Below, piece after piece: positions 45,267 to 64,000 of a stretch of 64,000 bases of DNA; position 1 is the stretch's first letter, and each line of letters starts with the position of its first letter. The DNA comes from Candidatus Latescibacterota bacterium. Its GTDB lineage: Bacteria; Latescibacterota; UBA2968. Position numbers and translations under genes: made by a program. Under the pieces are notes generated by a model that had not been told where the DNA came from, did no database searches, and saw only the letters and a program-made list of their open reading frames with translations. The stretch lies in assembly GCA_965204375.1 (NCBI GenBank), contig OZ241986.1, forward strand, positions 1,120,001-1,184,000, given 5' to 3'.

Positions 45267-47423
45267 ATGAAAATACGTATTCTTTTTTCTTTGTTATTTT
45301 GTAGTTCCCTTTTGGGAAGTATTTCCGAGGCGTCTGATTGGACACACTGGCGCGGTCCTATGCAAAATGGCGCTTCGCCGGAGACGGGGCTTATTTCTAC
45401 ATGGTCTCTGGAGGGCGAAAATCTGATCTGGCGTCGCGAGTTTATCGGCAGATCTACACCGATTATTGTAAATGGTCGGGTCTATGTTATCGGGCGAACC
45501 GGCAAAGACATAACCGAGCAGGAGCACATCGCGTGTTTTGATGCGGAAAAGGGCGATCTCATTTGGGAAAAAAAGTTCAATGTCTGGCACTCAACCATAA
45601 CCTTCAATCGTCTGGGATGGGCAAGCCTGGGGGCCGATGGCGAGACCGGTAATATTTACGCCCATCTCGTCAGTGGGTTATTGATCTGTTTTGATACCGA
45701 TGGCTATGTCCAGTGGCAGCGGTCTCTAACCGAAGAATTTAACCGATTCTCCGGTTATGGCGGGCGATTGCACACGCCCGTTGTCGATGGCGATCTGGTC
45801 ATCATCAGCATGGGCAATCGCGGATGGGCTGGCGCACCGCCTTCTCATCGGTATGTTGCCTTTAATAAACACACGGGTGAAACCGCGTGGATGGCTCGTC
45901 CGGGCGGCGGTGGGCAGGTTGATTTAACCGTTTACTCTACGCCTGTTGTCACGACAATTGACGGGCAGCGCGTGTTGGTTGCTGGCAATGGCAATGGCGG
46001 TATTTTTGCCTTCAAAGTCGCAACGGGCGAAAAAGTATGGGGTTTTCCATTCAGTAAGCGCGGCATCAACACTTCGCCTGTCGTGGCTGATAATCGCGTT
46101 TTTGTCGCACATAGCGAAGAAAATGTCGATAATACCTCTCTTGGTCGCGTTACATGTCTGGATGCGCGTACGGGCAAAGAAATCTGGCGACAAGACGGTA
46201 TGACCTCGGGCTATGCTTCGCCAGCGGTTCACGCGGGGCGCGTCTATGTGATCGACAATTCGGCCAATGTGCATTGTTTAGACGCCAAAACGGGAAAGCA
46301 ATATTGGGAACAAAATATCGGCACTGTGGGCAAGGGATCGCCGACCTGGGCCGATGGAAAACTCTATGTTACTGAGGTCAATGGCGGCTTCCAGATTCTC
46401 AAAACGAACAATATGGGCGCGGAAGTGCTCGACAAAAAGAAAATCGCAATGCCCGAAGGTGGGCATGCCGAGATCTACGGGTCAGTCGCTGTTGCGTATC
46501 GCCGCATCTATTTTGCGACCGAAGCCGGGTTGTTTTGTCTGGGCGATAAAAACGCGCGATTTGAAGTCACGCCTTCTCCTCATACAAAGCACGAAAGCGC
46601 GCCTTCGAGTGCCGAACCAGCATCTATTCTTTCTATTCCGGCTGAGGCGACCATACAACAGGGCGAGGTACTGCCCCTGCGGGCAGAGGCTTATGACGAG
46701 AAGGGGCGCTTGATCGGCAATGCCGACGCCGAGTGGTCGTTGAATGGCCTGGATGGAGAAATAAAGAATAATCAGTTTGTACCATCCCGACCGGGACAGG
46801 GCGGCTGGATCACGGCCAAACTGGGTGAATTAACCCGACAAACCTGGGTGCGCGTGGTGCCCGATGTGCCCTGGACAGAGGATTTTGAAAATGTCGAAGT
46901 CGGCACAAATCCATTGCACTGGGTGTGGGGGGGAAGGGGTTTTGCGGTGGAGGAAAAAGATGGCAACAAGGTTCTGGCAAAACCACCGGCTGCACGCGGC
47001 TTAGATCGCTCAAATCTCTATGTGGCGCCGTACAAACTCAGTGGCTATACTATTCAGGCCGATCTTATGGGTACGCAAAACAAGCGGCGTCGTCCCGATA
47101 TGGGTCTTATCGCGCATCGCTATATCCTCGATCTTCAAGGCATTCACCAGCGCCTCGAGATTCGGTCGTGGTCGTCGGATTTGCGTATGGCAAAACGCAT
47201 TGATTTCCACTGGGATATGGGGGTGTGGTACACCATGAAAATGAGAGTTGATATCGAAGGCGGCAAAGCTATCGTTCGGGGCAAAGTCTGGAAAAAAGGC
47301 GATCCCGAACCCGATGCGTGGAGTATTGAAGTAGAGGATCCCCTGCCGATAGAAGAGGGCAGCCCCGCGCTTTACGGCTATTCACCCGCCACGATTTACT
47401 ACGATAATGTGAAACTGTGGTAA
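45267..47423 (+). CDS. Secreted PQQ-like (BamB-type) beta-propeller with C-terminal beta-sandwich domains
   Basis: Signal peptide, DWTHWRGP, repeated A.TG...W Trp-docking motifs. Confidence 0.85.
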   Translation: MKIRILFSLLFCSSLLGSISEASDWTHWRGPMQNGASPETGLISTWSLEGENLIWRREFIGRSTPIIVNGRVYVIGRTGKDITEQEHIACFDAEKGDLIWEKKFNVWHSTITFNRLGWASLGADGETGNIYAHLVSGLLICFDTDGYVQWQRSLTEEFNRFSGYGGRLHTPVVDGDLVIISMGNRGWAGAPPSHRYVAFNKHTGETAWMARPGGGGQVDLTVYSTPVVTTIDGQRVLVAGNGNGGIFAFKVATGEKVWGFPFSKRGINTSPVVADNRVFVAHSEENVDNTSLGRVTCLDARTGKEIWRQDGMTSGYASPAVHAGRVYVIDNSANVHCLDAKTGKQYWEQNIGTVGKGSPTWADGKLYVTEVNGGFQILKTNNMGAEVLDKKKIAMPEGGHAEIYGSVAVAYRRIYFATEAGLFCLGDKNARFEVTPSPHTKHESAPSSAEPASILSIPAEATIQQGEVLPLRAEAYDEKGRLIGNADAEWSLNGLDGEIKNNQFVPSRPGQGGWITAKLGELTRQTWVRVVPDVPWTEDFENVEVGTNPLHWVWGGRGFAVEEKDGNKVLAKPPAARGLDRSNLYVAPYKLSGYTIQADLMGTQNKRRRPDMGLIAHRYILDLQGIHQRLEIRSWSSDLRMAKRIDFHWDMGVWYTMKMRVDIEGGKAIVRGKVWKKGDPEPDAWSIEVEDPLPIEEGSPALYGYSPATIYYDNVKLW

Positions 47424-47455
47424 TCTTTATAACCCCTTACAGGTAAAGGAATAAA

Positions 47456-48883
47456 ATGAAATTGAAACGACTTTTTAGCGGATGTGTCATCGTTGGTTTG
47501 ATCGTATCGACTGGTATTGCTGAAGAGGTTATGTGGGGATTTACTCCAGATCGCAACCTCGTGTCAGACGCAAAAAATTTGCCGATGAACTGGAATGTAG
47601 AAACGGGTGAAAATATCGTCTGGAAAGCAGATCTCGGTTCGCAGTCCTACGCCGGTCCCATCAGGATTGGTGGGAAAATATTCATGGGCACAAATAACCA
47701 GATTGAGCGCAATCCCAAAGTTACGGGTGACAAGGGCGTGATCATGGCTTTTCAGGAATCCGATGGAAAATTTCTCTGGCAAGCAGCGCATCCCAAGCTG
47801 CCCGCGGGGCGCGTCAATGACTGGCCACAACAGGGCATTTGCTCCACGCCTTATATTCGCGGAGATCGGATGTATTATATCTCGAATCAATGTCGCGTGG
47901 TGAGTGCGGATACAGAGGGGTTTTTGGATGGGGAAAATGACGGTCCATATACCGGGGAAGAGGATACGAGCGACATCGGTGTGGATATTATCTGGGAATA
48001 CGACATGATGGAAGAACTGGATGTGTTCCCTCACAATTTGGCGACCTGTTCGCCCGTGGGGGCGGGCAATCTCCTGTTTGTCATCACCGCCAATGGTGTT
48101 GACGAGGGTCACATTGCCATCCCTTCACCTCTATCGCCCAGCTTTATTGCGGTCGATCTCAATACGGGGGAACTGGTATGGGAAAAAGCCTATCCGGGTG
48201 AAAGTATCTTGCACGGGCAGTGGTCCAATCCCGCTTATGGCGTTATCAATGGCAAGCCGCAGGTGATCTGCCCTGGGGGCGATGGCTGGGTTTATTCGCT
48301 GGAAGCCGAGACCGGGGACTTGATCTGGAAATTTGACTGCAATCCAAAAGACTCTGTGTGGGAATTGGGTGGACGGGGCACGCGCAATGCGATTATCTCC
48401 ACTCCAGTTATTTACGATAACAAGGTTTTTATCGGCGTTGGGCAAGATCCGGAGCACGGCGAGGGCATTGGTCATTTGTGGGCTATTGATGCAACGGGTA
48501 CAGGAGATGTGACGGGAAGCCATGCAGTTTGGCACTTTGGCAATGAAAATTACAACCGGACTATTTCTACGGTGGGCATCAGCGATGGCCTGCTCTATGC
48601 GGCAGATCTGAGTGGGTTTGTCTATTGTCTCGACGTAAAAACTGGCAAACAGCACTGGAAATACGATACATTTGCCGCGATATGGGGATCGCCTTTTGTC
48701 GCTGATGGGAAGGTATATATCGGCGATGAAGATGGCGATGTGGCGATTTTGAAAGCTGGAACACAATTTGAACTGATCAACGAAATCAACATGGGCAGTG
48801 CCGTATATACCACGCCTATTGCAAAAGATGGCATGCTCTACATTGGCACGCGCAATACGCTGTATGCGATTAAGGGCGAGTAG
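47456..48883 (+). CDS. Secreted PQQ-like beta-propeller protein
   Basis: Signal peptide; D..TG...W repeats. Confidence 0.85.
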   Translation: MKLKRLFSGCVIVGLIVSTGIAEEVMWGFTPDRNLVSDAKNLPMNWNVETGENIVWKADLGSQSYAGPIRIGGKIFMGTNNQIERNPKVTGDKGVIMAFQESDGKFLWQAAHPKLPAGRVNDWPQQGICSTPYIRGDRMYYISNQCRVVSADTEGFLDGENDGPYTGEEDTSDIGVDIIWEYDMMEELDVFPHNLATCSPVGAGNLLFVITANGVDEGHIAIPSPLSPSFIAVDLNTGELVWEKAYPGESILHGQWSNPAYGVINGKPQVICPGGDGWVYSLEAETGDLIWKFDCNPKDSVWELGGRGTRNAIISTPVIYDNKVFIGVGQDPEHGEGIGHLWAIDATGTGDVTGSHAVWHFGNENYNRTISTVGISDGLLYAADLSGFVYCLDVKTGKQHWKYDTFAAIWGSPFVADGKVYIGDEDGDVAILKAGTQFELINEINMGSAVYTTPIAKDGMLYIGTRNTLYAIKGE

Positions 48884-48896
48884 GAGAGGTCACAAT

Positions 48897-49985
48897 ATGG
48901 AAGTTCTGGCAACACCTATTGTCGATAAGGTCAAAGAAGCGCGCGATACCCTCGATGCCCATGTGCGAGATATGGTCGCCTGGCATTTTAATCCCACTAC
49001 GGGGTGTCCATTCTGGCTGGAATTTGCAGGGGAATTGGATTTTGATCCACGTCGAGAGATCGGTGGGTACAGTGATTTGAAATATCTCGGGCATTTCCAG
49101 GATGAATGGCTGCGCGGCGGTCCCGTGCGGCGATGGATCCCGAGGGGAAGCGAGGGGCAGCGGACTTATGTATTTGAAACGGGTGGCTCAACCGGTGTGC
49201 CCAAATATCGGATTAGTCAAAACGATTTTCAAATCGACTACGAGATGTTCAGTGAGCACCTTTCTGAAGAAACATTTCCAAAGGGTGCGGACTGGTTGAT
49301 GCTGGGACCCACAGGTCCCCGGCGATTGCGCCTGGCTGTCGAATATCTCTGTCAGATTCGCGGTGGGATTTGCTTTCTCGTGGATCTCGATCCCCGATGG
49401 GTCAACAAGCTGATCAAGCGCGGCGCCCTCCAGGAATTGGAACTCTACAAAGCCCATGTCATCGATCAGGCACTCACGATTCTGCGCGCCAATGACAATG
49501 TGAAATGCATGTTCACGACTCCCAAGCTTCTCGAAGAATTATGCGAAAAAATTTCTCTGCAAAAAGCCGGGATTAGCGGCATTTTCTGCGGGGGAACAGA
49601 GATGAACGCACAATTCAATCGCTTTGCGAGAGAAGAGCTTATCCCGGGCATTGATTTTGTTCCTACCTACGGCAATACCCTAATGGGACTGGCTTATTCC
49701 AAGCCGCTCGAATCCGGAGATAACTACGCGATTACGTATTATCCGCCCGTACCCCGCGCGTTTATCGAACTGGTAAAGCCGAACAATCCCGATGAAGTGG
49801 TCGATTACGACGAAGTCGGGCGCGTGATGCTGACGACGCTTACAAAAGAATTTTTTATGCCCCGCTTTCTCGAACGCGATGAGGCCGAACGCGCCAAACC
49901 GATTGAAGCCTATCCCTGGGATGGCGTGAGAAACCTGGGTCTGCTCTCTGAGTTGCAGGAATCCGTGGTCGTTGGGGTGTATTAA
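48897..49985 (+). CDS. GriC/EhpF-like short adenylate-forming enzyme
   Basis: FETGGSTGVPK P-loop, GGTE, YGNTLMG, ERD; 362 aa, lacking the usual ANL C-terminal subdomain. Confidence 0.7.
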   Translation: MEVLATPIVDKVKEARDTLDAHVRDMVAWHFNPTTGCPFWLEFAGELDFDPRREIGGYSDLKYLGHFQDEWLRGGPVRRWIPRGSEGQRTYVFETGGSTGVPKYRISQNDFQIDYEMFSEHLSEETFPKGADWLMLGPTGPRRLRLAVEYLCQIRGGICFLVDLDPRWVNKLIKRGALQELELYKAHVIDQALTILRANDNVKCMFTTPKLLEELCEKISLQKAGISGIFCGGTEMNAQFNRFAREELIPGIDFVPTYGNTLMGLAYSKPLESGDNYAITYYPPVPRAFIELVKPNNPDEVVDYDEVGRVMLTTLTKEFFMPRFLERDEAERAKPIEAYPWDGVRNLGLLSELQESVVVGVY

Positions 49986-50004: not shown

Positions 50005-51144
50005 TCAAGGCAGTTCCACCTCACGGCAAAAGGTAGAAAAGGGCAACACGCGGGTGTTGTCTGTTGCGTTGCCAAAATCTTTTGTACCCAGGTGTACCTG
50101 GTAAAATCGCGGAATATCTGTTCGCTCTCTGAAGTACTTGCAGGCGGGCGAATTACCGCGCTCACCGGTTTTGCACTCGACGGCAAATTCAGCATATCCA
50201 TCGCGTAGAACGACAAAATCTACCTCGCGCTTGTCGGTATCTCGGATAAAGCGCAATTCCATGTCATATCCTTCCGTATCTTCGATATAGTGGCAGTACT
50301 TCAGTAAGTGTCCGGCCACCATGTTCTCAAACCGGGCACCGCGATCTGTTACGCGCGACCAGTCCCAGAAATACAGTTTTTTCTCCTTGCGCACAGCTCT
50401 GATCCTTTTCGCACCAAATGGTGGAATGCGATAGCACAGGTATAGCCTTTCAAAGATCGCGAGCCAGCGTTCGACGGTTTCGTGAGCCACTTGCAAGAGT
50501 TTGCTGAGGCTGTTGACCGAAAGCGGGGATCCCACACAGGCGGGCAGGTGAGATAGCAAGAGGTCTAACATGGATACCTCGCGCACATTTTCCAGATCGC
50601 GGAGGTCTTCATAGATGACTCTTGCGGAATGCTCGCGTAGCCACCTGCGGTGAAATCGCGTCTCCCCCCTGAGAAAAGGCTCCGGAAAACCGCCAAATCT
50701 GAGCAGTTGTGCCACGAGCGTGTTATCTGACTCCCGTCCGCATTCCATCAGCGTGAAGGGATGCAGGCGGTAGTAGTGATATCGCCCCTGCAAGGAGTCG
50801 CCGCCTTTGCGGTAGTAATCCAGCCGTGCCGAGCCAGTGACAATAAAAGAAACGGATGTCTTGTTTTTGTCGAATAGTCCTTTCATTAGATTTCGCCATT
50901 GTGCGTACTTGTGAATTTCATCGAAAATGATGCGGGTCTGTCCAGAAGGTAGTCGTCCCGCCAGAATGTCCTCGCGGTCGGCCAGTACATCCCAGTTCAG
51001 GTAGGCGGGTGATGACTCATTCTGATCTTGCCCCAACAGTGAGATTGCGAGTGTTGTTTTTCCAACCTGGCGCGGACCGCCGATGAATATCATTCTGTCT
51101 GCGATATCTGCTTCAATATGATCCGTGATGTAGCGGGGTTCCAT
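50005..51144 (-). CDS. AAA_14 ATPase with DUF4143 C-terminus
   Basis: GPRQVGKTT, FDEIH, TGSA, SLQGR, GGFPE, FENMV, REVDFV..AVECK. Confidence 0.9.
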   Translation of the reverse strand: MEPRYITDHIEADIADRMIFIGGPRQVGKTTLAISLLGQDQNESSPAYLNWDVLADREDILAGRLPSGQTRIIFDEIHKYAQWRNLMKGLFDKNKTSVSFIVTGSARLDYYRKGGDSLQGRYHYYRLHPFTLMECGRESDNTLVAQLLRFGGFPEPFLRGETRFHRRWLREHSARVIYEDLRDLENVREVSMLDLLLSHLPACVGSPLSVNSLSKLLQVAHETVERWLAIFERLYLCYRIPPFGAKRIRAVRKEKKLYFWDWSRVTDRGARFENMVAGHLLKYCHYIEDTEGYDMELRFIRDTDKREVDFVVLRDGYAEFAVECKTGERGNSPACKYFRERTDIPRFYQVHLGTKDFGNATDNTRVLPFSTFCREVELP

Positions 51145-51165
51145 ACTTATTACCTTTCTTGCATG

Positions 51166-51233
51166 TCGTGAGTATTTTAGACTAAACCACAATATACTCG
51201 TGAGTATTTTAGAGTCAATATGAAAATACTCAC
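51166..51233. promoter_or_regulatory. Direct plus inverted repeat operator upstream of the AAA_14 gene
   Basis: tcgtgagtattttaga at 51166 and 51198; inverted aaaatactcac at 51223. Confidence 0.6.
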
Positions 51234-51385: not shown

Positions 51386-52810
51386 ATGATTCACTTACCC
51401 ATTTTACGCGCGGGGGAACCGTACACGAGCTTGAGCGTTCAGGAAGTGTCGCATATTCAAACTGGCGAGCCACTCGTTCAGGTCAGTCAGGCAAACCGGG
51501 GGCTGGTAGCTAAAGACTTGAATGCAGCGGCGGCGAACAAACACGCGCTCGACAGGCTGAGTGTATCCGAACTCGTGGGCATAACCCGCGAAGCCGCGCG
51601 CTTATTTGCAGAAGCCGATTTGCCCATTGGCGATCATATCCAGACGCCCGATGATTATGTCAAACAGGTGTCTGGCACAACGGGTATGCCCGAAGCGCTC
51701 TGCCGCGCGAATATGGAAAAAATTCAGCTCGTATGCACGGAGATCGAAGCTGTTTTAGGAGGTCTCACGCGCGGGTTAGATCTCGCTGTGCTCGATGAGG
51801 GCTGGCACGATCAGGATGGTCGTTCTCTCAGCTATATTTGCCAGGCCGATGCCCTCGGGGCTATATTGCCGAGCAATTCACCGGGGGTGCACGCGCTGTG
51901 GGTTCCAGCCATACCACTCAAGGTACCACTCGTTCTAAAACCCGGACGCGAAGAGCCCTGGACGCCTTTCCGAATTGCACAGGCGTTTATAGAAGCGGGG
52001 TGCCCGCCAGAAGCGTTTGGGTTTTATCCCACAGATCACGGTGGTGCCACTGAAATTTTGCTTCGCTGCGGTCGCTCTATGCTCTTTGGGGGCGGGGCGA
52101 CGGTCGCGCCTTGGCTGAGCGATCCCCGCGTGGAAATTCACGGGCCTGGGCAGAGTAAGGTCATTATTGGCGAAGATGTGATAGACCGCTGGGAAGACTA
52201 TCTCGACATCGCGGTTGCTTCAATTACTGCAAATGGCGGTCGCTCCTGTATCAACGCGTCGGGGGTGTGGGTTCCCGCGCATGGTCGAGAAATTGCCGAA
52301 GCACTCGCAGAGCGATTGGCAAAAGTTGTCGGGAGACCTCTTGATGATCCAGAAGCGCAGATCGCGGCATTTACCAACCCCGCATTCGCCGATCAAATTT
52401 CGCTGGCTATAGATATCAACCTGAAAACGCCAGGGGCCGAAGAACTGACCGAGAAATTGCGCGGTGATCGGCTGGTCGAGATCGATGGGTTGAAATTCTT
52501 AAATCCCACAGTTGTCTGGTGTGACGATTTTGAACATCCTCTTGCAAATACCGAATATTTGTTCCCATACGCGAGCGTAGTCGAGGTTTCTCAGTCGGAA
52601 ATTTTGGACAAGATTGGACCAAGCCTTGTGGTGACAGCCATAACAGAAGACCGTGTATTTATCGATAAATTGCTCAATTCTCCCCATGTAGAAAGACTGA
52701 ATGTGGGTGCGATTCCCACGCATCAGATATCATGGGATCAACCACACGAGGGCAACTTGTTCGAGCACCTGTACCGGCAGCGCGCGCTGCAATGGGCGAA
52801 ACAGGCTTAG
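51386..52810 (+). CDS. GriD/EhpG-like aldehyde dehydrogenase-fold acyl reductase
   Basis: PSNSP, LKPG, catalytic Cys in GGRSCINAS; HGPGQSK in place of ELGGK; EYLFP. Confidence 0.75.
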   Translation: MIHLPILRAGEPYTSLSVQEVSHIQTGEPLVQVSQANRGLVAKDLNAAAANKHALDRLSVSELVGITREAARLFAEADLPIGDHIQTPDDYVKQVSGTTGMPEALCRANMEKIQLVCTEIEAVLGGLTRGLDLAVLDEGWHDQDGRSLSYICQADALGAILPSNSPGVHALWVPAIPLKVPLVLKPGREEPWTPFRIAQAFIEAGCPPEAFGFYPTDHGGATEILLRCGRSMLFGGGATVAPWLSDPRVEIHGPGQSKVIIGEDVIDRWEDYLDIAVASITANGGRSCINASGVWVPAHGREIAEALAERLAKVVGRPLDDPEAQIAAFTNPAFADQISLAIDINLKTPGAEELTEKLRGDRLVEIDGLKFLNPTVVWCDDFEHPLANTEYLFPYASVVEVSQSEILDKIGPSLVVTAITEDRVFIDKLLNSPHVERLNVGAIPTHQISWDQPHEGNLFEHLYRQRALQWAKQA

Positions 52811-56488: not shown

Positions 56489-57730
56489 ATGACATACAGG
56501 TATTATTTGTTAATCGCCGTTGTGCTGTGTTTTTCTTCCGCACACGCGGATTGGCCCCAATGGCTGGGTCCCAATCGAACGGGTATTTCTTCTGAAACGG
56601 GGTTGGTGACAACCTGGACAAAAGATGGGCCAACGGTTGTGTGGCAACAAGAACTCGGTGAGGGGTTTTCCGGTATCTCGGTCGCGGATGGCCGGGTCTA
56701 TACGATGTTCTCTGCTGGGGAAGACGAATTTGTCATTTGTCTGAATGAAGAAACAGGCAAGGAAATCTGGCGTTTCAGGACTGGTGCCAAATTTTATGAG
56801 CGTCAAGGTGGGAACGGTCCCCGTTCTCAGCCTACTGTGGATGGCGAGCGGGTTTTTGTGCTGAGTGCCGAAGGCTGGTTGTACGCGCTCAATGCAAAAG
56901 ATGGGAAAAAACTTTGGCTGGTTGATCTTTACGATGGATTGGGCAGTCGCGTGCCAAAATTCGGGTTTTCGACGTCGCCGCTGGTCGAAGGCGATTTGTT
57001 GCTCTTAGAAGTGGGCACACGGCAAGGGACGTTTATCGCTTTGGATAAGACAAATGGCGCTGTCAAGTGGGCGTCTCAACGAGATGTCGTGTCTTATTCA
57101 TCGCCTATTGCTGCAGATATTGCGGGTATTCGCCAGGTGGTTTTTGTTTCGGGCGAAGCCGCGGTTGGGCTTTCTCCCACAGATGGCTCGCTCTACTGGC
57201 GATTTCCCTGGTCCACGTCTTATGATCTGAATGTTGCCACGCCAATTTTAGTGCCCCCAGATCACATATTTATTTCTTCGGGTTATGACCACGGGGCAGC
57301 TCTGTTGCAAATCTCCCCGGAGGGAGATGGTCTGAGCGTTAAAAAGGTGTGGGAAAGCCGCGGTATGAAAAATCATTTTGGCACATCGCTTCTGATCGGC
57401 GACTATATCTATGGTTTTGACAATGCGATCTTGAAATGTATTGAGGCAAAGACCGGCAAGGAACAGTGGAAACGCCGGGGGTATGGCAAAGGGACGCTTA
57501 TTTATGCCGATGGACAGTTGATCATTTTGAGCGATAAAGGTAAGCTCGCATTGGCAGATGCGTCGCCCACAGGTTTTCGTGAAAAGGCCAGCACACAAGT
57601 GCTGTCGGGCAAGTGCTGGACGCCACCAACGCTTGCCAATGGTAAAATTTTTGTGCGCGATATGCACAGGATTGTATGCATGGATGTATCGGGCACGCAG
57701 GCGAAACCTGCGGACACGGAGAGCGAATAA
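56489..57730 (+). CDS. Secreted PQQ-like beta-propeller protein
   Basis: Signal peptide AHA, DWPQWLGPNR, GPRSQPTVDG, YSSP. Confidence 0.85.
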   Translation: MTYRYYLLIAVVLCFSSAHADWPQWLGPNRTGISSETGLVTTWTKDGPTVVWQQELGEGFSGISVADGRVYTMFSAGEDEFVICLNEETGKEIWRFRTGAKFYERQGGNGPRSQPTVDGERVFVLSAEGWLYALNAKDGKKLWLVDLYDGLGSRVPKFGFSTSPLVEGDLLLLEVGTRQGTFIALDKTNGAVKWASQRDVVSYSSPIAADIAGIRQVVFVSGEAAVGLSPTDGSLYWRFPWSTSYDLNVATPILVPPDHIFISSGYDHGAALLQISPEGDGLSVKKVWESRGMKNHFGTSLLIGDYIYGFDNAILKCIEAKTGKEQWKRRGYGKGTLIYADGQLIILSDKGKLALADASPTGFREKASTQVLSGKCWTPPTLANGKIFVRDMHRIVCMDVSGTQAKPADTESE

Positions 57731-57779: not shown

Positions 57780-59903
57780 ATGCGTTATTTTAGACAGTTT
57801 TTGATTTTTACCTGTATTCTGGGCCTGACGAGTAATTTTATTTTTGCGCAAAATACAGAAGAGGAGAAGAAGGAGGAGGAAGAACTGCCCGTTTATGCGG
57901 GAGAAGAGATCGTGGTGACGGAGAGCAAGGAAAAAGTGCCTACCGTGAGTACTATCGCGATGAAGGTTCCCGTCCCAATCCGTTTGACACCGGCGAGTAT
58001 CGGAGTTGTCAATCACGGGTTGTTTCAACATCAAAGCGGCGTGGTTTTGGGGGATGCACTGCGAAATGTGAGCGGGGTCAATATTCAGACCGTATTTGGC
58101 GTTACGGATTTCTTCGTCATTCGCGGGTTCGATTCGCTTTCCAGCGGGCTGGTGCTCACCGATGGGGCGTCAGAGCCGGAAGCCACGTTTTACAATCTTT
58201 ACAATTTGGATCGCGTGGAGGTACTCAAGGGACCGGGGGCATTTTTGTACGGCGGCAACCCGCTTTCTGGATCGGTGAATCTGAGTCGCAAACAACCGAT
58301 TTTTTCAAATGCTTTCCAGGTCGGAGGGTCTTACGGTCCGTACAATACGGTTCGTGGAACAGTAGATGCAAATTGGGCAGATGTCGATCAGGGTGTTGCC
58401 GTGCGCATCAATGCACTGCGGCAGGTGTCTGATAGTTATAGAGACGATAAAGACAGCGGTTTGTGGGCTGTGAATCCCGCGGCGACATGGCGGCCCAGTG
58501 ACAAAACCACAGTGACTGCCAATTTCGAATATGTCACCAGCAGGTACAAATCAGATGCGGGTATTCCCATTATCAATGGGGTGGTCGCAGATGTGCCGCG
58601 CACGCAATCGTATCAATCGCCTTTTGATGCGTCAGATCAAGATATTTATCGGGCGCGCGTCGATCTTCACTCTCGCTTGTCGAGACAGGTCACGCTTCGC
58701 AATAAGCTCTATTATACCGATTTTTCATGGGTATCTCAGGGTACATTGTTCAGTGGCGTTTTCCCCAATGCTCAGGGTAGCCTGGATATTCTGCGCTCAC
58801 TTGTTCTTTTGGACGACCGTCAGAAAGTGTTGGGCAATCAGTTTGAGTTTTTATCCACATTCCGCACGGGACATGTAGAACACACGCTGCTTACCGGGTT
58901 GGAATTGATGCAGTGGAAAGACAAATTTACCTTAGATGTGGCGGCTTTGCCCAATATCGACGTTTTCAATCCCATGGAAACCGCGAGCCAGCCGTTTTTT
59001 ATTATTCCGGGGCAATCGCAGGGGGCGGATTCAAAAAGCCGCGTTGTCGCGCCTTATGTCGTGGATCGCATTGTCTTTTGTCCCTGCTATGAGGCATTTG
59101 TAGGTGTGCGATATGACCGCATCGATTACGATGATCCCGTGACTTCTACTTCTCGCAATTACAACAAACTGAGTCCTATGGCCGGCATGGTGGTTTCATT
59201 TAAGGATGTTCTCTCGTTGTACGCCAATGTGGGTAAAGCATTTGCGCCTCCTTCGAGCCTGGTCGCAGGTCCGCGAGAGACCGAAGAGAGTTTTCAGATG
59301 GAAGTGGGCGCGAAAAAATTCCTGTTGGATGACCGCCTGCACGCGAGTCTCGCTGTTTATCATTTGGCAAAAGACAACATCGGAATTCCCGATGCGACGG
59401 GTGTCACACAGCAAGATGGAGATCAACGGTCTCGCGGTGTCGAGTTTGAGATGATGGTGCGCCCCGTGAGAAATTGGCACACGTTTTTATCCTACTCATT
59501 TTCCAATGCCACACTCACGCGCTTTGCCGAGTTTGTTCCCGTGTTCACGCAAACGGGTATTACATACCAGCTTATGGATCGTTCGGGAAATAGGGCGGCT
59601 TTTTCGCCGCGCCATATTTTCAATGTGTGGACGGCGAGAGGATTTGACAATGGGTTGGAATTTGGGATTGGCGCGCGCTATGTCACCAACCAGTTTATTG
59701 CTGCAGATAATCAATTTCAGATTGGGGATGTGATGACGCTGGATGCATCCGCGTCTTATACGTACAAGCAGATGAAATTTCGCATCAATGCTAAAAATTT
59801 GACCAATCAGGAATACGAAACGCAGGGTAGCCTTGGCGCCCCTACCTCAGTTATTCCGGCCAATCCATTTGGCCTGTACTGTGCTTTTGAAGTTAATATT
59901 TGA
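57780..59903 (+). CDS. TonB-dependent outer membrane receptor
   Basis: EEIVVT TonB-box-like segment, FVIRGF, RVEVLKGPGAFLYG plug, NAKNLTNQEY. Confidence 0.92.
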   Translation: MRYFRQFLIFTCILGLTSNFIFAQNTEEEKKEEEELPVYAGEEIVVTESKEKVPTVSTIAMKVPVPIRLTPASIGVVNHGLFQHQSGVVLGDALRNVSGVNIQTVFGVTDFFVIRGFDSLSSGLVLTDGASEPEATFYNLYNLDRVEVLKGPGAFLYGGNPLSGSVNLSRKQPIFSNAFQVGGSYGPYNTVRGTVDANWADVDQGVAVRINALRQVSDSYRDDKDSGLWAVNPAATWRPSDKTTVTANFEYVTSRYKSDAGIPIINGVVADVPRTQSYQSPFDASDQDIYRARVDLHSRLSRQVTLRNKLYYTDFSWVSQGTLFSGVFPNAQGSLDILRSLVLLDDRQKVLGNQFEFLSTFRTGHVEHTLLTGLELMQWKDKFTLDVAALPNIDVFNPMETASQPFFIIPGQSQGADSKSRVVAPYVVDRIVFCPCYEAFVGVRYDRIDYDDPVTSTSRNYNKLSPMAGMVVSFKDVLSLYANVGKAFAPPSSLVAGPRETEESFQMEVGAKKFLLDDRLHASLAVYHLAKDNIGIPDATGVTQQDGDQRSRGVEFEMMVRPVRNWHTFLSYSFSNATLTRFAEFVPVFTQTGITYQLMDRSGNRAAFSPRHIFNVWTARGFDNGLEFGIGARYVTNQFIAADNQFQIGDVMTLDASASYTYKQMKFRINAKNLTNQEYETQGSLGAPTSVIPANPFGLYCAFEVNI

Positions 59904-59906: not shown

Positions 59907-61175
59907 ATGCCTGACTTGACTACAGACCGAAACGCGCTCTGGCAACGGCAGTTAAAGCGGTTGCGAGGTATGCTGTCTCCAGTGCTGGATGGCAATGATT
60001 TTTATCGCAATAAGTTGAATCGGGCGGGTATTTATCGACCCGAGGATATTCAGACGCGCGATGATTACAGGCTGTTGCCCTTCACGACTAAAGAGGAATT
60101 ATCGGCTGATCAGATGGCGTATCCCCCTTATGGCAGCAATGTGACTTTTCCGCCAGATCACTATATCCGCGTCCATCAAACATCGGGGACTACGGGAGAG
60201 CCTTTGAACTGGTTGGATACGGTAGAGAGTTGGGATTGGTTTGCGCGTTGCTGGACTTATGTGTATCGCGGGGCGGGCGTGACGGCAAATGACAGATTGT
60301 TTTTTGCCTTTTCTTTTGGTCCTTTTATTGGATTCTGGAGCGGGCATGAAGGTGCGCGTTTAATGGGGACAATGGCCATCCCCGGGGGGGCCATGTCCTC
60401 AATTCAGCGTTTGCAAGCGATTCGGGATCATGAGGCTACTGTTCTTGTCTGTACGCCGACGTATGCCCTGCATCTGGCAGAGGTGGCTGAGGCAGAAGGT
60501 ATAGATATTGCAAACGGAAGTGTTCAGACCACGATTCACGCGGGCGAACCCGGTGCGGGATTACCTGCGACCAGACAGCGCATTGAACAGGCATGGGGAG
60601 CGCGTTGTTATGATCACGCTGGGGCGACTGAGGTAGGTGCGTGGGGATTTGAATGTGCTTTTCGAGATGGCATGCATATCAACGAAGCCGAATTTATTTC
60701 TGAAGTGATCGATCCCGATACGGGCGAACAAGCGAGAGAGGGAGAGTTGGTACTCACCAATTTGGGACGCGCTGGCATGCCCGTTATTCGCTATCGCACG
60801 GGAGATCGCGTAAAGCTGAATACAGAAATTTATGATTACGGTTCGAGTTTCTCGCGTCTTGAAGGAGGCGTGATTGGACGTATCGACGATGCGTTGATTG
60901 TCCGCGGCGTCAATTTTTATCCCAGCGCGATTGAAAATATCGTGCGAGAATTTCCCGAAGTGACCGAGTTTGCGGTGGATATTTATCGGCAAGGCGAAAT
61001 GGATGATATGCAAATTCGCATCGAGTTAAATGGCGGGGAGTCGGGTCCGATTTCCAATGCCATAGCCAGAGAAGTGCGACATATTCTGGGCATACGCGCT
61101 GGCGTTCAAACCGTGCCACACAATACTTTGCCGCGATTTGAGTTGAAAGCGAGACGGTTTATGGATCACCGTTAA
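59907..61175 (+). CDS. Phenylacetate-CoA ligase (PaaK)-family AMP-dependent ligase
   Basis: PFTTK, TSGTTG, AGEPG, GATEVG, RYRTGD, GRIDD..IVRGVNFYPSAIE. Confidence 0.88.
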   Translation: MPDLTTDRNALWQRQLKRLRGMLSPVLDGNDFYRNKLNRAGIYRPEDIQTRDDYRLLPFTTKEELSADQMAYPPYGSNVTFPPDHYIRVHQTSGTTGEPLNWLDTVESWDWFARCWTYVYRGAGVTANDRLFFAFSFGPFIGFWSGHEGARLMGTMAIPGGAMSSIQRLQAIRDHEATVLVCTPTYALHLAEVAEAEGIDIANGSVQTTIHAGEPGAGLPATRQRIEQAWGARCYDHAGATEVGAWGFECAFRDGMHINEAEFISEVIDPDTGEQAREGELVLTNLGRAGMPVIRYRTGDRVKLNTEIYDYGSSFSRLEGGVIGRIDDALIVRGVNFYPSAIENIVREFPEVTEFAVDIYRQGEMDDMQIRIELNGGESGPISNAIAREVRHILGIRAGVQTVPHNTLPRFELKARRFMDHR

Positions 61176-61253: not shown

Positions 61254-61472
61254 ATGACAGACCTTCTTACTAAAGCCTTTGAAGAAGCGCAAAAACTTCC
61301 CGAAAAATCACAGGATGCGCTTGCCGAGCAATTGCTAAAAGATATTGAGGAAGAGGTTCGATGGGATGAATCCCTAGCAAAATCTCCCGATGTGCTTGCC
61401 GCACTCGCAGATAAGGCCAGAGAGGAATATAGAGCAGGGCGTACAAAAGAAATGGGTTTTGATGAACTGTGA
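61254..61472 (+). CDS. Type II antitoxin
   Basis: 72-aa acidic protein overlapping the toxin start (GTGA). Confidence 0.75.
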   Translation: MTDLLTKAFEEAQKLPEKSQDALAEQLLKDIEEEVRWDESLAKSPDVLAALADKAREEYRAGRTKEMGFDEL

Positions 61473-61738
61473 CTTCCCAACTAACACGAGACTTCATCCG
61501 GTGTTTCCAAAAATTACCCGACAGAGTCAAGGTAATTGCGCGAAAAAATTACAAACTTTGGAAAGAAAATAGGGCGCATCCTAGCCTTGAGTTTAAGCGG
61601 GTGCATCCAACGCAAACAATCTACTCTATAAGGATAGGAAGAGGTTGGCGAGCTCTGGGCATTTTGGAAAATGATATTATCCTGTGGTTCTGGATTGGGC
61701 CACATAGTGAATACGACATATTAGTGAAAAACTTTTAG
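61469..61738 (+). CDS. RelE/ParE-like toxin
   Basis: HPSLEFKRV, YSIRIG..WRALG, WFWIGPHSEYD. Confidence 0.8.
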   Translation: MTSQLTRDFIRCFQKLPDRVKVIARKNYKLWKENRAHPSLEFKRVHPTQTIYSIRIGRGWRALGILENDIILWFWIGPHSEYDILVKNF

Positions 61739-61748
61739 GACCTATTTC

Positions 61749-62993
61749 ATGATCAATCATTACGATGTCATTGTCATTGGTGGAGGACCTGCGGGAAGCA
61801 CGACAGCCGCGCTTGTCGCTGAATATGGGCACCGCGTGCTGCTGTTGGAAAGGGAGGAGTTTCCCAGATTCCAGATTGGCGAATCTCTGATGCCGGGTAC
61901 GTACTGGTCGTTTAAGCGACTGGGGCTGCTGGATAAGCTGAAAAAAAGTGCGTTTGTCAAAAAATACAGTGTTCAGTTTTTTAGCGGATCGGGAAAAGGC
62001 TCTGCACCATTTTATTTTCACTTACACGATCCCCACGAAAGTTCTATCACATATCAGGTATTGCGCAGCGAATTTGATCTTATGATGATGGACAATGCCC
62101 GTGAGAAAGGTGCTGAGGTCGAGCAGGGGGCGAGTGTGCATCAGGTGCATTTTTCCGGGGATAAGGCAACGGGTGTTCAGGTGAGATACCGCGATGGACA
62201 AATTAAAGATGTGTTTGCCAGTGTTATCGTAGATGCGACGGGGCGAAGCGCGCTTATTTCGAGAAGGCTAAAGACCAAGACGATTGAGCCGAAGCTCAAA
62301 AAGGCGTCCATTTTCACGCACTACAAAGGCGCGTTTCGCGATGAGGGTATTGACGAAGGTGCAACGCTGATTTTACATACGCGAGACAAGGACTCCTGGT
62401 TCTGGTACATCCCGCTGGCAGATGATGTGGCCAGCGTGGGCGTTGTTGGGGGATTGGATTATTTGCTACAAAACCGCAAGAGAACCCCTCAGGAAATTTT
62501 TGAAGAAGAGCTGGATAAGTGTATCCGCATGCAAGAACGGCTCGCAGGGGCCGAGCAGTTGTTTCCCATGAAAGTCACGCAGGACTTTTCATACCGATCC
62601 AATACTGTCGCGGGTGAGGGATGGGTGCTGGTGGGCGATGCTTTTGGTTTTATCGATCCCGTTTATTCCTCGGGTGTGTTCCTCGCGCTCAAATCGGGCG
62701 AGATGGCCGCCGATGCGATACACGAAGCCATTGAGAAGCGCGATTTCTCAGCCGAGCAACTCGGCAAATGGGGGCCAGAATTTCTCCCGGGCATGGAGGC
62801 GATTCGCAAATTGGTCTATGCTTTTTATACCAAAGATTTCAGTTTTGCCAGATTTTTAAAAGCACATCCAGAATGTATAGATGGCATTATCAATATCTTA
62901 AAAGGCAATGTCTATCGCGAGGATGTCACCCCTATTTTTGAACCTATGGGGCAAATGTGCGATCTGCCCGAGACTGTGGATCACTATTCCTAA
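61749..62993 (+). CDS. FAD-dependent halogenase-family flavoprotein
   Basis: GGGPAG, FPRFQIGES, FVKK, WFWYIP, GDAFGFIDPVYSSG. Confidence 0.8.
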   Translation: MINHYDVIVIGGGPAGSTTAALVAEYGHRVLLLEREEFPRFQIGESLMPGTYWSFKRLGLLDKLKKSAFVKKYSVQFFSGSGKGSAPFYFHLHDPHESSITYQVLRSEFDLMMMDNAREKGAEVEQGASVHQVHFSGDKATGVQVRYRDGQIKDVFASVIVDATGRSALISRRLKTKTIEPKLKKASIFTHYKGAFRDEGIDEGATLILHTRDKDSWFWYIPLADDVASVGVVGGLDYLLQNRKRTPQEIFEEELDKCIRMQERLAGAEQLFPMKVTQDFSYRSNTVAGEGWVLVGDAFGFIDPVYSSGVFLALKSGEMAADAIHEAIEKRDFSAEQLGKWGPEFLPGMEAIRKLVYAFYTKDFSFARFLKAHPECIDGIINILKGNVYREDVTPIFEPMGQMCDLPETVDHYS

Positions 62994-63005
62994 TTCTTAA
63001 TTCCT

Positions 63006-64000
63006 ATGCGAATTGCTTATATTGCCGCGGGTGCGGCGGGTATGTATTGTGGCAGTTGTATTCACGATAATGCGCTGGCCTCTGCGCTTCAGCGCAAGGG
63101 AATAGATTTCGCGCTTATTCCGACGTACACGCCCCTGCGTACCGATGAACCGGGCGCGAGTATTGATCGGGTGTTTTACGGCGGCATAAATGTTTATCTC
63201 CAGCAGAAAATGGGGATTTTTCGGCACATGCCCTCTTTTGTCGATAGATTATTGAATGGCCGAATACTGCTCAATAGTCTCGCCCGTTTTAGTGGATCAA
63301 CCCGCGCGGAAGATCTCGGCGCGCTTACCGTGTCGGTTTTAGAGGGGGAAGATGGGGCGCAAAAAAAAGAACTCGCAAAGCTGGTGTACTGGTTAAAAGA
63401 GGATTTCCAGCCAGACCTCGTGCAATTGACCAATTCGATGTTTTTGGGCATGGCGAGAGAAATGAAACGGGAACTCGGTATTCCCGTTTTGTGTTCTCTG
63501 CAAGGCGAAGATATCTTTCTCGAAGGATTGATAGAACCGTATAAATCGGAGGCGCGGCAGTGCTTACGAGATCGAGCAAGGGATGTCGATGGGTTTGTAG
63601 CTACTTGTGACTATTATGCCGATTTTATGGCTGATTATCTCGATGTCCCGCGCAATCGGATTCACGTCGCGCCTTTGGGCATCAAATTAGACGGACATGG
63701 AGAAAGCGATGTAAAGCCAGATTCGCTGCCTTTTGCGATTGGTTATCTCGCTCGAATATGTCCCGAGAAGGGGTTGCATGCGCTGGTAGATGCGTTTCAT
63801 CAACTGGCTGAGCAAGTCGGTAAGGAGAATCTAAGACTCAGTGTTGCCGGTTATCTCGGACAAAGAGATACGCCATATTTTCAGCACGTATGCGAACAAA
63901 TCGCATCCCGGGGACTTTCCGATGTTTTTGATTATCGCGGGGAAGTCAATCGAGAAGAAAAAATTGCATTCCTGAATAGCATCCATATCTTATCCGTGCC
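63006..64000 (+). CDS. GT4-family glycosyltransferase (3' truncated by window edge; not in the ORF track)
   Basis: Hand translation MRIAYIAAGAAGMYCGSCIHDN...IGYLARICPEKGL... Confidence 0.85.
   Translation, partial: MRIAYIAAGAAGMYCGSCIHDNALASALQRKGIDFALIPTYTPLRTDEPGASIDRVFYGGINVYLQQKMGIFRHMPSFVDRLLNGRILLNSLARFSGSTRAEDLGALTVSVLEGEDGAQKKELAKLVYWLKEDFQPDLVQLTNSMFLGMAREMKRELGIPVLCSLQGEDIFLEGLIEPYKSEARQCLRDRARDVDGFVATCDYYADFMADYLDVPRNRIHVAPLGIKLDGHGESDVKPDSLPFAIGYLARICPEKGLHALVDAFHQLAEQVGKENLRLSVAGYLGQRDTPYFQHVCEQIASRGLSDVFDYRGEVNREEKIAFLNSIHILSV

Follow-up and report, generated by a model that had tools for sequence, protein, structure and literature searches.

A 64,000-nucleotide stretch of the genome of a Candidatus Latescibacterota bacterium (the window; bases 1120001-1184000 of the single 6.34-Mb contig OZ241986.1) carries the first part of a gene cluster, here numbered g01 to g20 (Table 1), that is genuine, widely conserved and functionally uncharacterised, that is built of known enzyme families and that has not gone wholly unnoticed. 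Comparison across genomes indicates that the universal core of this cluster comprises an adenylase (g03), a reductase (g05), a family 4 glycosyltransferase (GT4), an ATP-binding cassette (ABC)/FtsX pump and a beta-propeller protein, and that a flavin-dependent halogenase, a PaaK-like ligase, a radical S-adenosylmethionine (SAM) enzyme and a TonB-dependent receptor are lineage-restricted additions. The best-supported single function is that of g03 and g05, for which alignments and a modelled complex provide good support for a predicted two-protein carboxylate reductase dependent on ATP and NAD(P)H. For the cluster as a whole, we tentatively favour a dedicated system that makes, glycosylates and exports a small molecule derived from a carboxylic acid, with the propellers handling the product at the cell envelope.

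Organisation and extent of the cluster

All eleven plus-strand genes of the original prediction are present where it had placed them, in the order it had given and in the families it had called, and the two interruptions that it had described, an AAA_14 gene and a toxin-antitoxin (TA) pair, are both real by Pfam and open reading frame (ORF) evidence. Successive plus-strand genes are spaced by -16 to 78 nt, the sole exception being a gap of 193 nt past the AAA_14 insert. The likely starts of g03 and g08 are ATG codons at 48897 (giving 362 aa, a length typical of nearly all relatives) and at 55111 (giving 448 aa and a 4-nt overlap with the stop of g07), respectively, and not those of longer GTG frames. 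The GT4 gene that had been predicted to run off the window is complete in the genome, where it encodes 430 aa, and extension along the contig reveals g15 to g18 followed by two propeller genes, g19 and g20. The cluster thus overruns the window end at 64000 by at least five further co-oriented genes, up to the equivalent of window position 69256, and the two propeller genes reach the equivalent of 72258. The unit measures approximately 24 kb for g01-g18 and 27 kb when g19 and g20 are included.

The window had also been described as free of polyketide synthase (PKS) and non-ribosomal peptide synthetase (NRPS) genes, and this holds for the domains that were sought: no ketosynthase, condensation or carrier-protein domain (PF00109, PF00668 and PF00550) was found in the window or in the 27-kb cluster. 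Genome-wide, matches to PP-binding or ketosynthase domains occur only at 1.83, 3.0, 3.7-3.8 and 4.63 Mb, and the condensation domain (PF00668) has no match anywhere in the genome.

Conservation across phyla

Conserved synteny had been proposed as a check on the cluster, and its homologues proved not to be scattered but to be kept together in Latescibacterota, Poribacteria, Calditrichota and Acidobacteriota. A scan for g03 with one genome per species returned at least 588 confirmed loci, the best 80 of which were kept with 10-kb flanks; the phylum names of these loci are the submitters' labels, which are imperfect. Orthologues in these 80 loci were counted by tblastn with the window proteins, the flanks cutting off the distal half of the cluster. 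g05 adjoins g03 downstream in 59 of the 65 loci whose downstream sequence exceeds 3 kb; upstream of g03, 59 of 78 loci have g02, and 55 of the 71 whose upstream sequence exceeds 4 kb have g01. Where more than 8 kb was available downstream (59 loci), g06, g07 and g08 were detected in 38, 32 and 27 loci, respectively. The strand of g03 is shared by nearly all ortholog-level hits (64/64 for g05, 58/59 for g02 and 56/57 for g01), and all-against-all clustering of crude ORFs produced the same ranking (g03 in 72 loci, g05 in 59, g01 in 55, g02 in 54, g06 in 44, g07 in 35 and g08 in 26).

The distal half was examined in 40-kb stretches from 12 Latescibacterota genomes belonging to 11 genera and four families. 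g03 and g05 are found in all 12 stretches, g06, g07 and g08 in 11, g11 with g13 in 11, and the receptor gene g10 in seven. GT4 is present in 10 of the 12; one of the other contigs stops just short, and the remaining genome (G106) holds only g02-g03-g05 at this place. All eight stretches that are long enough contain g15-g18, and the order is colinear from g01 to g18, with orthologues of g09 occurring in part of the lineages only. In Acidobacteria bacterium Mor1 the whole block is contiguous, and in a Poribacteria genome it is split into g01-g08 and GT4-g15-g16-ABC-FtsX, which lie 3.8 Mb apart; the order from g14 to g18 is kept in Latescibacterota, in Mor1 and in this second Poribacteria locus. 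Soil Acidobacteriota loci (Blastocatellia, Bryobacteraceae and Paludibaculum) carry a minimal form, g03-g05-GT4-(ABC-FtsX)-propeller. Sulfidibacter corallicola carries the first half of the cluster, and its FtsX homologue is distant. In one Latescibacterota genus g01 and g02 are unlinked from g03, and a g02 with 76% identity lies elsewhere in the genome; upstream of g03, this genus encodes a PcRGLX/GH127-like protein and two GFO/IDH/MocA oxidoreductases (L012:5160-9974). GH127-like genes also neighbour some versions of the cluster.

Within the phylum Latescibacterota, g03 occurs as a single copy in 98 of 168 genomes, all of them in four of the 14 families (97 of 131 genomes there, 0 of 36 elsewhere). 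A tree of 63 g03 sequences was constructed as a quick build with SH-aLRT support only. Its two clades separate nine Acidobacteriota rows (Blastocatellia, Bryobacteraceae, Paludibaculum, Pyrinomonadaceae and two with a phylum label only), most of them with the minimal cluster, from all other rows. Phylum labels are clustered on this tree, with 8 changes compared with 27.5 in shuffles. Latescibacterota needs at least three changes, so the tree makes some exchange of g03 with Poribacteria-like lineages likely. Two bins titled 'Gemmatimonadota' (L012 and L013) have a g03 that is 86-87% identical to that of the window; L012 is the same contig as a genome (G051) placed in the window's own order and L013 groups with the Latescibacterota rows of the tree, and the label is probably wrong for both.

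The clustering goes beyond chance, because six of the eleven PQQ_2 propeller genes in the whole 6.34-Mb genome lie inside this 27 kb and the order is kept across phyla. We consider it quite possible, if some way from assured, that g01-g18, often with g19/g20, constitute one co-inherited, operon-like system of approximately 19 genes. Unrelated operons that merely lie side by side (g01-g08, g09-g13 and g14-g18) would be in keeping with the two distant loci of the Poribacteria genome, the distant FtsX homologue of Sulfidibacter, the unlinked g01 and g02 of one Latescibacterota genus and the many selfish genes found between members (see below). We regard such mere adjacency as highly improbable, given that genomes with different phylum labels share one gene order and that gaps between members are small or overlapping. 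The supposed halves are also bridged, since in soil Acidobacteriota g03-g05 joins GT4-ABC-FtsX-propeller directly, and this counts against adjacency alone.

A predicted two-protein carboxylate reductase

Residues 11-362 of g03 align to residues 13-366 of EhpF in its solved chains (PDB 3l2k/3hgu, E 5e-44), and EhpF is the sole relative of g03 among solved structures. g03 is without the C-terminal domain of the acyl-CoA synthetase, NRPS adenylation and luciferase (ANL) superfamily and has no model in NCBIfam; the ESM Atlas assigned it a generic AMP-binding name, which we treat as a lead only. Its P-loop-like sequence FETGGSTGVPK is invariant, the mean column identity of the g03 alignment is 82%, and identity ranges from 66-97% over the 80 loci. 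g05 is a distant member of the aldehyde dehydrogenase (ALDH) superfamily that exceeds the Pfam Aldedh cut-off of 23 bits, and its Cys288, within NGGRSC, is invariant in 15 of 15 sequences.

Prediction of a complex between g03 and g05 gave a score of 0.76 (0.75-0.78 between runs), compared with 0.00 for the best of three controls, with at least 70% of contacts agreeing between runs and a partner pLDDT (predicted local distance difference test) of at least 90. In calibration against 80 solved complexes and 110 mismatched pairs, 58 of the former and 2 of the latter attained the mark for this score, counts that hold only roughly because our own alignments were fed to the prediction. The predicted interface involves invariant residues of both partners: S15, Q35, N37 and G39 of g05, and K210, E213, E217, Q239, F240, R242 and F243 of g03. 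EhpF and EhpG reduce a phenazine dicarboxylate in the same manner as GriC and GriD. The latter pair reduces 3-amino-4-hydroxybenzoic acid (3,4-AHBA) via an acyl-AMP, according to the accessible part of the published account (PMC10179220). The assignment of g03/g05 as a probable carboxylate reductase follows from the predicted complex, through its invariant residues, and from the GriC/GriD mechanism. The original calls of a GriC/EhpF-like adenylase and a GriD/EhpG-like reductase are thereby upheld by a full-length EhpF match, an invariant Cys288, the predicted complex and gene adjacency.

Open frames of 833-835 aa in four genomes appeared to represent a g03-g05 fusion, and were rejected as stop-free alternative frames in high-GC DNA; the genes are separate. 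Longer g03 proteins were also found, 15 in number and all but one known from a single sequence. In the seven that were aligned, g03 is joined to g05 (one of these also with an Fe-ADH domain label in precomputed Pfam data) or to g02. In most of them g03 ends 20-30 residues early where it meets the second part, which gives them the look of frameshift read-throughs, and none was counted as evidence.

Halogenase, ligase and radical SAM enzyme

Comparison with solved structures places g13 in the PltA/CndH/CmlS/Bmp2/Mpy16 halogenase clade, with best matches to PDB 8zop (225 bits), CndH (187 bits) and PltA (183 bits) and a range of 168-225 bits across the clade. The FAD motif GGGPAGS (GxGxxG), the WFWYIP motif (WxWxIP) and GDAFGFIDPVYSSG are all present, and Lys72 aligns with a Lys in FPIKRGG of CndH, FPKKFG of PltA and YVKKPS of CmlS, which we take to be the catalytic Lys of those enzymes. 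All 15 distinct orthologues retain these signatures, the second motif in the form WFW[Y/S/F]IP. With every sequence signature present, g13 is predicted from its motifs to be a flavin-dependent halogenase, and the halogenase-like WxWxIP flavoprotein that had been called from the sequence is upheld by these motifs, by Lys72 and by the matches to solved halogenases.

g11 matches the solved PaaK structure 2y4o (E 2e-57) and scores below the PaaK equivalog cut-offs (261 versus 700 bits and 230 versus 646 bits) and that of FlxY (160 versus 520 bits), and is accordingly described as a PaaK-like family member only. The translation of g08 contains CRKRCKFC (CxxxCxxC) and GGGTP, with scores of 68.6 bits for Radical_SAM and 24.1 bits for HemN_C against a cut-off of 24; its solved matches include HemN (1olt, 4e-31) and the methyltransferase NocN (9e-25). 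The thioesterase g16 is of the YbgC/FadM-like 4HBT type.

Putatively secreted propellers

The four propellers within the window had been described as secreted, and each does have a hydrophobic, signal-like N-terminal segment, recognised by inspection by eye only. g01 consists of an eight-bladed PQQ_2 propeller followed by an Ig-like domain and a ConA-like jelly roll (residues 431-718). These C-terminal 288 residues were modelled with a pLDDT of 92 and appear to form a carbohydrate-binding-like module, since the best Foldseek matches are to CBM66, Big_2-CBM56 and legume lectins.

g02 stands out for its conservation. An alignment of 21 sequences with the labels Latescibacterota, Poribacteria, Calditrichia and Acidobacteriota has a mean column identity of 70%; 20 of these sequences are 58-89% identical to the window copy, and g02 contains invariant clusters of His, Asp, Glu, Trp and Cys residues, for example in FPHNLA, NGVDEGH, GQDPEHG and GDEDGD. 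Judged from these alignments, such conservation is unusual for BamB-like proteins. The g02 model (pLDDT 81) is eight-bladed, and its nearest solved folds are BamB (Foldseek E 4e-22), alcohol dehydrogenases that use pyrroloquinoline quinone (PQQ) and lanthanides, tetrathionate hydrolase and YxaL. None of the cluster propellers passes the BamB cut-off (TIGR03300, 285 bits), with scores of 117 for g01, 65 for g02, 190 for g07, 77 for g09, 55 for g19 and 38 for g20, and none passes those of the PQQ dehydrogenase models (TIGR03075/TIGR03074; 26-89 versus 480 bits). Weak matches to an 'acido-empty-quinoprotein' family were also obtained. In size the propeller domains correspond to BamB, and the insertions seen in PQQ dehydrogenases are absent.

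These features bear on a different explanation, in which the cluster would make and export a small redox-active or metal-binding aromatic cofactor that the propellers use as apo-enzymes, much as quinoproteins use PQQ, with the TonB receptor salvaging it as PqqU does PQQ. The four to seven propeller paralogues inside the cluster, which include most of those in the genome, would suit such a system, as would the enzyme-like conservation of g02, its retention in the genome even when unlinked, the weak matches to the 'acido-empty-quinoprotein' and PQQ dehydrogenase families, and the fact that g13 also scores 136 bits on QhpG and 122 bits on LodB, both of them maturases of quinone cofactors. We nevertheless consider it improbable, as scores on PQQ-enzyme families are far below their cut-offs (36-89 versus 480 bits) and the dehydrogenase insertions are missing, the halogenase matches of g13 are stronger (225 bits) and its halogenase Lys is retained, cofactor routes do not typically include a glycosyltransferase and a thioesterase, and no ligand is directly in evidence. 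A related proposal is that the secreted propellers, above all the g02 family, represent a new class of periplasmic enzyme whose substrate or cofactor is the exported glycosylated (halo)aromatic, a 'make inside, use outside' arrangement like that of PQQ and the quinoproteins. This is a long shot; if true, a propeller-enzyme system would span Latescibacterota, Poribacteria, Calditrichota and Acidobacteriota without any characterised member.

A further PQQ_2 gene of the same genome (G000:C1:4623057-4623809) lies approximately 6 kb from a 3365-aa frame (4629439-4639796) with two ketosynthase domains and carrier domains, which is a second pairing of this propeller type with a biosynthetic gene.

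Receptor and export genes

The g10 receptor has a Plug domain (61 bits) and a barrel (149 bits) and passes the siderophore receptor model TIGR01783 (236.2 bits versus a cut-off of 223.5). Secreted binding proteins or enzymes together with a TonB-dependent receptor fit the logic of a polysaccharide-utilisation locus (PUL), and the cluster could be imagined as a PUL-like or detoxification system in which a glycosylated or aromatic compound from outside is captured or cleaved by the propellers, taken up through the receptor and then processed by the ligase, thioesterase, reductases and radical SAM enzyme. The CBM66/lectin-like domain of g01 is in line with this, as are the sulfatase, M19 peptidase, creatininase, thiamine pyrophosphate (TPP)-enzyme and PhyH genes within the block in Poribacteria variants, and the GH127-like genes beside some versions. 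We judge uptake to be decidedly improbable: just seven of the 12 Latescibacterota clusters have the receptor and the minimal form lacks it, the halogenase, the GT4, the exporter and an acid reduction at the expense of ATP and NADPH all point to anabolism, and no PUL-typical regulator or inner-membrane importer was seen.

For the ABC ATPase g17, the best NCBIfam score was to LolD (244 bits versus a cut-off of 308), with further matches to the MacB, FtsE and DevA (heterocyst-glycolipid exporter) families. g18 is a duplicated permease with FtsX and MacB periplasmic-core domains, and is below all curated cut-offs (for ADOP, 40 versus 622 bits). The DMT/EamA-like name of g15 comes from the ESM Atlas alone and is a lead only. 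After the GT4-g15-4HBT-ABC-FtsX block, the second Poribacteria locus continues with genes for another ABC ATPase, an FtsX/MacB_PCD permease of 855 aa and a CrtC/lipocalin-like protein (L085:2658-7319).

The resemblance of this pump to lipid exporters raises the prospect of an envelope glycolipid, whereby a fatty acid would be reduced to a fatty aldehyde by g03/g05 acting as LuxE/LuxC do, then to a fatty alcohol by g06, converted by GT4 to an alkyl glycoside and delivered to the outer membrane by a Lol/Dev-like ABC-FtsX pump, with the propellers as periplasmic carriers or assembly factors. An adenylase of about 360 aa without the ANL C-terminal domain and an ALDH-like reductase of about 475 aa with a catalytic Cys fit such a route in size and architecture, LolD is nearest to g17 and the DevA family is also matched, g16 is YbgC/FadM-like, and the minimal form needs merely an acid from primary metabolism. 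BrtI, a glycolipid exporter cassette, is also a frequent best hit in the clusters of a related preprint, as far as its available text describes them (10.64898/2026.08.03.742642). We still think a glycolipid unlikely. Neither g03 nor g05 matches the Pfam LuxE and LuxC families at E 0.01, and no membrane-fusion or LolA-like gene was seen beside the exporter. A PaaK-like ligase and a phenol- or pyrrole-type halogenase suit aromatic chemistry better, and EhpF, the only solved g03 relative, acts on an aromatic acid. The same is true of GriC in the available part of PMC10179220.

Proposed function

The original prediction described a biosynthetic system that combined carboxylate reductase, radical SAM, halogenase-like and GT4 genes with secreted propellers and a TonB receptor. 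Its biosynthetic character is supported by the family calls, the synteny and the reductase pair, whereas the conserved core is narrower than the combination that had been claimed. We hold the reading of a system that makes, glycosylates and exports a product as a working one, and grade the specific order of chemical steps set out below much lower.

In the marine full form, the PaaK-like g11 would make an aryl-CoA, for example from a hydroxybenzoate-type acid, g13 would halogenate the thioester-bound ring and the 4HBT thioesterase g16 would release the acid, while the class C-type radical SAM enzyme g08 might optionally add a methyl group (C-methylation) or carry out a rearrangement. g03 and g05 would convert the carboxylate to an aldehyde at the cost of ATP and NAD(P)H, the iron-containing alcohol dehydrogenase g06 would reduce this to an alcohol, and the GT4 g14 would glycosylate the alcohol. 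The DMT-like g15 and the LolD/FtsX pump g17-g18 may then carry the glycoside out of the cytoplasmic membrane, after which the propellers g01, g02, g07 and g09 could bind or convert the product in the periplasm or outside the cell, and the TonB receptor g10, where present, might re-import the product or its metal complex. The minimal form (g03, g05, GT4, ABC, FtsX and one propeller) would only reduce, glycosylate, export and handle. Marine lineages have added to this core a further enzyme that activates acids, the halogenase, thioesterase, radical SAM enzyme and alcohol dehydrogenase, additional propellers and, in many cases, a TonB receptor. Engineered routes to benzyl-alcohol glucosides that couple a carboxylic acid reductase, an alcohol dehydrogenase and a glycosyltransferase follow a parallel logic.

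Several observations weigh against this proposal. No scaffold-forming enzyme, substrate or product has been identified for the cluster. The closest solved halogenases (PltA, CndH and Bmp2) act on carrier-bound substrates, and since no carrier protein is present in the cluster, it is guesswork to let CoA take the place of one. The minimal form has neither the halogenase and ligase nor the radical SAM enzyme and receptor, and the first two are also absent from the second Poribacteria locus, so the 'halo-aryl' part cannot be the core function. g08 is under every NCBIfam cut-off (HutW, 185 versus 400 bits; hemN, 182 versus 325; HemW, 170 versus 205), and the GT4 g14 is likewise below all curated family cut-offs. 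Nothing ties the propellers to the product chemically, and the fold search with g02 returned only generic eight-bladed propellers (BamB, PQQ dehydrogenases, tetrathionate hydrolase and YxaL). At gathering scores, the window and locus L001 have no Rfam family match, and no riboswitch was found. A Fur-box-like 7-1-7 pattern gave four matches compared with 3.5 expected, none of them upstream of g01 or g10, and so lends no support to regulation by iron; the sequence thus offers no regulatory clue.

Clusters without a PKS, NRPS, terpene or ribosomally synthesised and post-translationally modified peptide (RiPP) core largely escape standard genome mining. This one is single-copy and conserved in order in mostly uncultured phyla of sponges, corals, sediments and soils, and is probably important to its carriers. 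A single line of genes offers a two-protein carboxylate reductase, an alcohol dehydrogenase and a glycosyltransferase, together with a carrier-free halogenase context and a strongly conserved family of secreted propellers. The identity of the product would give function to hundreds of 'BamB-like/PQQ-like' proteins and might bear on the origin of the small halogenated metabolites of sponge holobionts, a question raised by the preprint discussed below. Carriers with complete genomes include Acidobacteria bacterium Mor1 and Sulfidibacter corallicola M133.

Insertions and neighbouring genes

The AAA_14 gene is restricted to the closest relatives of the window, with tblastn hits in six of 80 loci (L003-L008) and an ORF family (f29) in five loci. 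The TA pair is absent from relatives, in which g11 abuts g13, and a contig from another sample joins position 61168 directly to 61756, skipping the pair. Different junctions have been invaded by selfish or defence-like genes in different lineages, including AAA_21 with DUF4276, DUF433 with DUF5615, PIN, DNA methylase and AAA_35 genes, and the cluster's own genes stay intact. Such inserts account for the TA and nucleotide-binding genes that the preprint sees in clusters of this type.

A PhyH-family dioxygenase gene, transcribed divergently from g01, lies immediately upstream of it and is shared by members of the genus. In seven Poribacteria loci, g02 and g03 are separated by another, different PhyH-family gene; the PhyH dioxygenase may be an accessory oxygenase of the system. 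Poribacteria blocks also contain genes for a TPP-dependent enzyme (nine loci), a creatininase-family protein (eight), an M19 dipeptidase (10), a sulfatase (seven) and a short Vgb-lyase-like propeller fragment (14). Also in the window, a 662-aa protein has DUF6785 (315 bits) and DUF6784 (77 bits) domains and no NCBIfam match, and its adjacency to the cluster is kept only within the genus. An IS1595-family transposase (DDE_Tnp_IS1595 and zinc ribbon) is encoded in a stretch of lower GC content at 26-34 kb (GC 0.45-0.47). Of the genes that precede the cluster in the window (FGGY kinase, UvrD-like helicase, IS1595 transposase, S8 and M48 peptidases, SAICAR synthase and DUF6785), none accompanies it outside the genus, and all were set aside as unrelated.

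Table 1. Genes of the cluster, insertions and neighbouring features. Plain numbers are window positions; coordinates that follow a locus label refer to that locus.
Feature	Coordinates	Strand	Description
g01	45267..47423	+	PQQ_2 propeller, 718 aa; Pfam PQQ_2 124 bits
g02	47456..48883	+	PQQ_2 propeller, 475 aa; Pfam
g03	48897..49985	+	EhpF/GriC-like adenylase, 362 aa; weak Pfam AMP-binding match
AAA_14/DUF4143 ATPase gene	50005..51192	-	Pfam; insertion outside the conserved system
g05	51386..52810	+	Probable ALDH-superfamily reductase partner (EhpG/GriD-like), ~475 aa; Pfam Aldedh 58.8 bits
g06	52814..53929	+	Iron-containing alcohol dehydrogenase; Pfam Fe-ADH and ADH_Fe_C
g07	53969..55114	+	Propeller; Pfam Beta-prop_ACSF4 206.9 bits (cut-off 133) and PQQ_2
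g08	55111..56457	+	HemN-like (class C type) radical SAM enzyme, 448 aa; Pfam Radical_SAM and HemN_C
g09	56489..57730	+	PQQ_2 propeller; Pfam PQQ_2 158 bits
g10	57780..59903	+	TonB-dependent receptor, siderophore-receptor subfamily; Plug and barrel
g11	59907..61175	+	PaaK-like aryl/acyl-CoA ligase
Toxin-antitoxin pair	61254..61738	+	72-aa ORF (61254-61472) and ParE-like 89-aa ORF (61469-61738)
g13	61749..62993	+	Predicted flavin-dependent halogenase (Trp_halogenase/FAD), 414 aa; WFWYIP
g14	63006..64000 (cut by window end); L001:3006-4298	+	GT4, 430 aa in the genome
g15	L001:4320-4811	same as g14	163-aa multi-pass membrane protein, DMT/EamA-like
g16	L001:4808-5263	same as g14	4HBT thioesterase (YbgC/FadM-like)
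g17	L001:5322-5975	same as g14	LolD-like ABC ATPase
g18	L001:5960-9256	same as g14	1098-aa permease; two FtsX and MacB_PCD
g19	L001:9263-10798	-	PQQ_2 propeller
g20	L001:10945-12258		PQQ_2 propeller after g19
Inserts in other lineages	L020:5616-7588; L071:13909-14628; L081:18395-18787; L022:11364-12815; L085:10766-12376		Selfish or defence-like genes (see text)
Poribacteria in-block extras	L022:13844-15592; L022:18058-18798; L034:16857-17942; L038:15006-16502; L019:11211-11912		See text
PhyH gene upstream of g01	44327-45061	-	PhyH-family dioxygenase
PhyH gene of Poribacteria	L022:8975-9850		Different PhyH-family gene, between g02 and g03
DUF6785 gene	42307-44295	-	DUF6785 and DUF6784
Transposase gene	29684-30634	-	IS1595 family

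Occurrence in other samples

Contigs that hold part of the stretch were found in 20 public runs from 12 studies, covering coral, sponge, biofilm and coral-reef metagenomes and including six RNA libraries. In one coral metatranscriptome library, contigs cover all 30 bins of the cluster and span the g01/g02, g07/g08 and g13/g14 junctions. This is compatible with expression as long transcripts, and the support is weak because DNA can occur in such libraries and the contigs are without transcript ends. The contigs likewise give no strand or level, and uncovered parts of two sponge RNA libraries (X16 and X18) carry no meaning. Promoter-like sites in the sequence are near the shuffled mean (26 versus 22.0, standard deviation 3.9) and terminator-like sites are more numerous than in shuffles (35 versus 19.8, standard deviation 4.3), with no strong one between cluster genes; neither count was used.

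Comparison with known systems

A preprint by Loureiro et al. (bioRxiv 10.64898/2026.08.03.742642), the sole relevant text found and available in part, defines a 'Halo_AMP' pseudoclass in sponge microbiomes by an FADH2-dependent halogenase together with an AMP-binding enzyme. In its accessible portion, 840 such clusters are reported from sponge and seawater metagenomes, none of which groups with MIBiG references, and Latescibacterota, Poribacteria and Acidobacteriota account for 9%, 8% and 16% of family origins, respectively. PQQ-like domains are described there as occurring 'at high frequency', along with TonB transporter, TA, glycosyltransferase, thioesterase, radical SAM and ABC genes, and BagE, Bmp2 and BrtI are frequent best gene hits. 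The member that the preprint pursues is a different one, CC A, which contains P450s, and the available text has no mention of an aldehyde-dehydrogenase-like reductase, an alcohol dehydrogenase or EhpF. The cluster described here falls within the Halo_AMP definition as worded in that text, with g13 accompanied by g11 and g03. Compared with the text description of the class, which has 20 components, it differs in that its core also occurs without the halogenase and outside sponges.

The cluster had originally been put forward as a candidate 'undescribed' system. No characterised pathway that matches it was found in the literature searched, which for MIBiG relies on the comparison in the available text of the preprint (10.64898/2026.08.03.742642), and going by that comparison for the Halo_AMP class, a match to a known MIBiG pathway was not encountered. 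The word is too strong in so far as the halogenase-bearing clusters are already listed there as an orphan class.

Individual parts of the cluster have closer counterparts. The exporter resembles MacB, LolCDE and DevBCA in its LolD-like ATPase g17 and in the FtsX and MacB_PCD domains of g18, but no gene for a membrane-fusion protein, LolA/B or TolC was seen beside g17-g18. The propellers, which all have Pfam PQQ_2 matches, are comparable to BamB and PQQ-dependent dehydrogenases, with g02 alike in fold, but form orthologous groups of their own that are 42-97% conserved across loci. g13 shares GxGxxG, the aligned Lys72, WxWxIP and the GDAxxFxDPxxSxG motif with the PltA/CndH/CmlS/Bmp2/Mpy16 halogenases, from which it differs as a short form of 414 aa with no carrier protein or NRPS/PKS partner in the cluster.

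In the fatty-acid reductase of bacterial luminescence, the adenylating subunit LuxE likewise lacks the ANL C-terminal domain and its partner LuxC is an ALDH-like reductase whose active site has a Cys, and the two are similar in size to g03 and g05; the cluster has no LuxD-type transferase and no lux genes, and the Pfam LuxE and LuxC families are unmatched. The nearest parallels are EhpF/EhpG of Pantoea agglomerans (D-alanylgriseoluteic acid) and GriC/GriD of Streptomyces griseus (grixazone). Like EhpF, g03 is a protein of approximately 365 aa without the ANL C-terminal domain; its partner g05 is an ALDH-superfamily protein with an invariant Cys, encoded by a gene adjoining that of the adenylase. 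Phenazine genes of the phz or ehpA-E type are not among the cluster genes, and GriH/GriI-type genes for 3,4-AHBA had no dedicated search. In contrast to both systems, the pair described here sits among propellers, a GT4 and an ABC/FtsX pump, and g03 is far more conserved, its 66-97% identity over 80 loci extending across several phyla.

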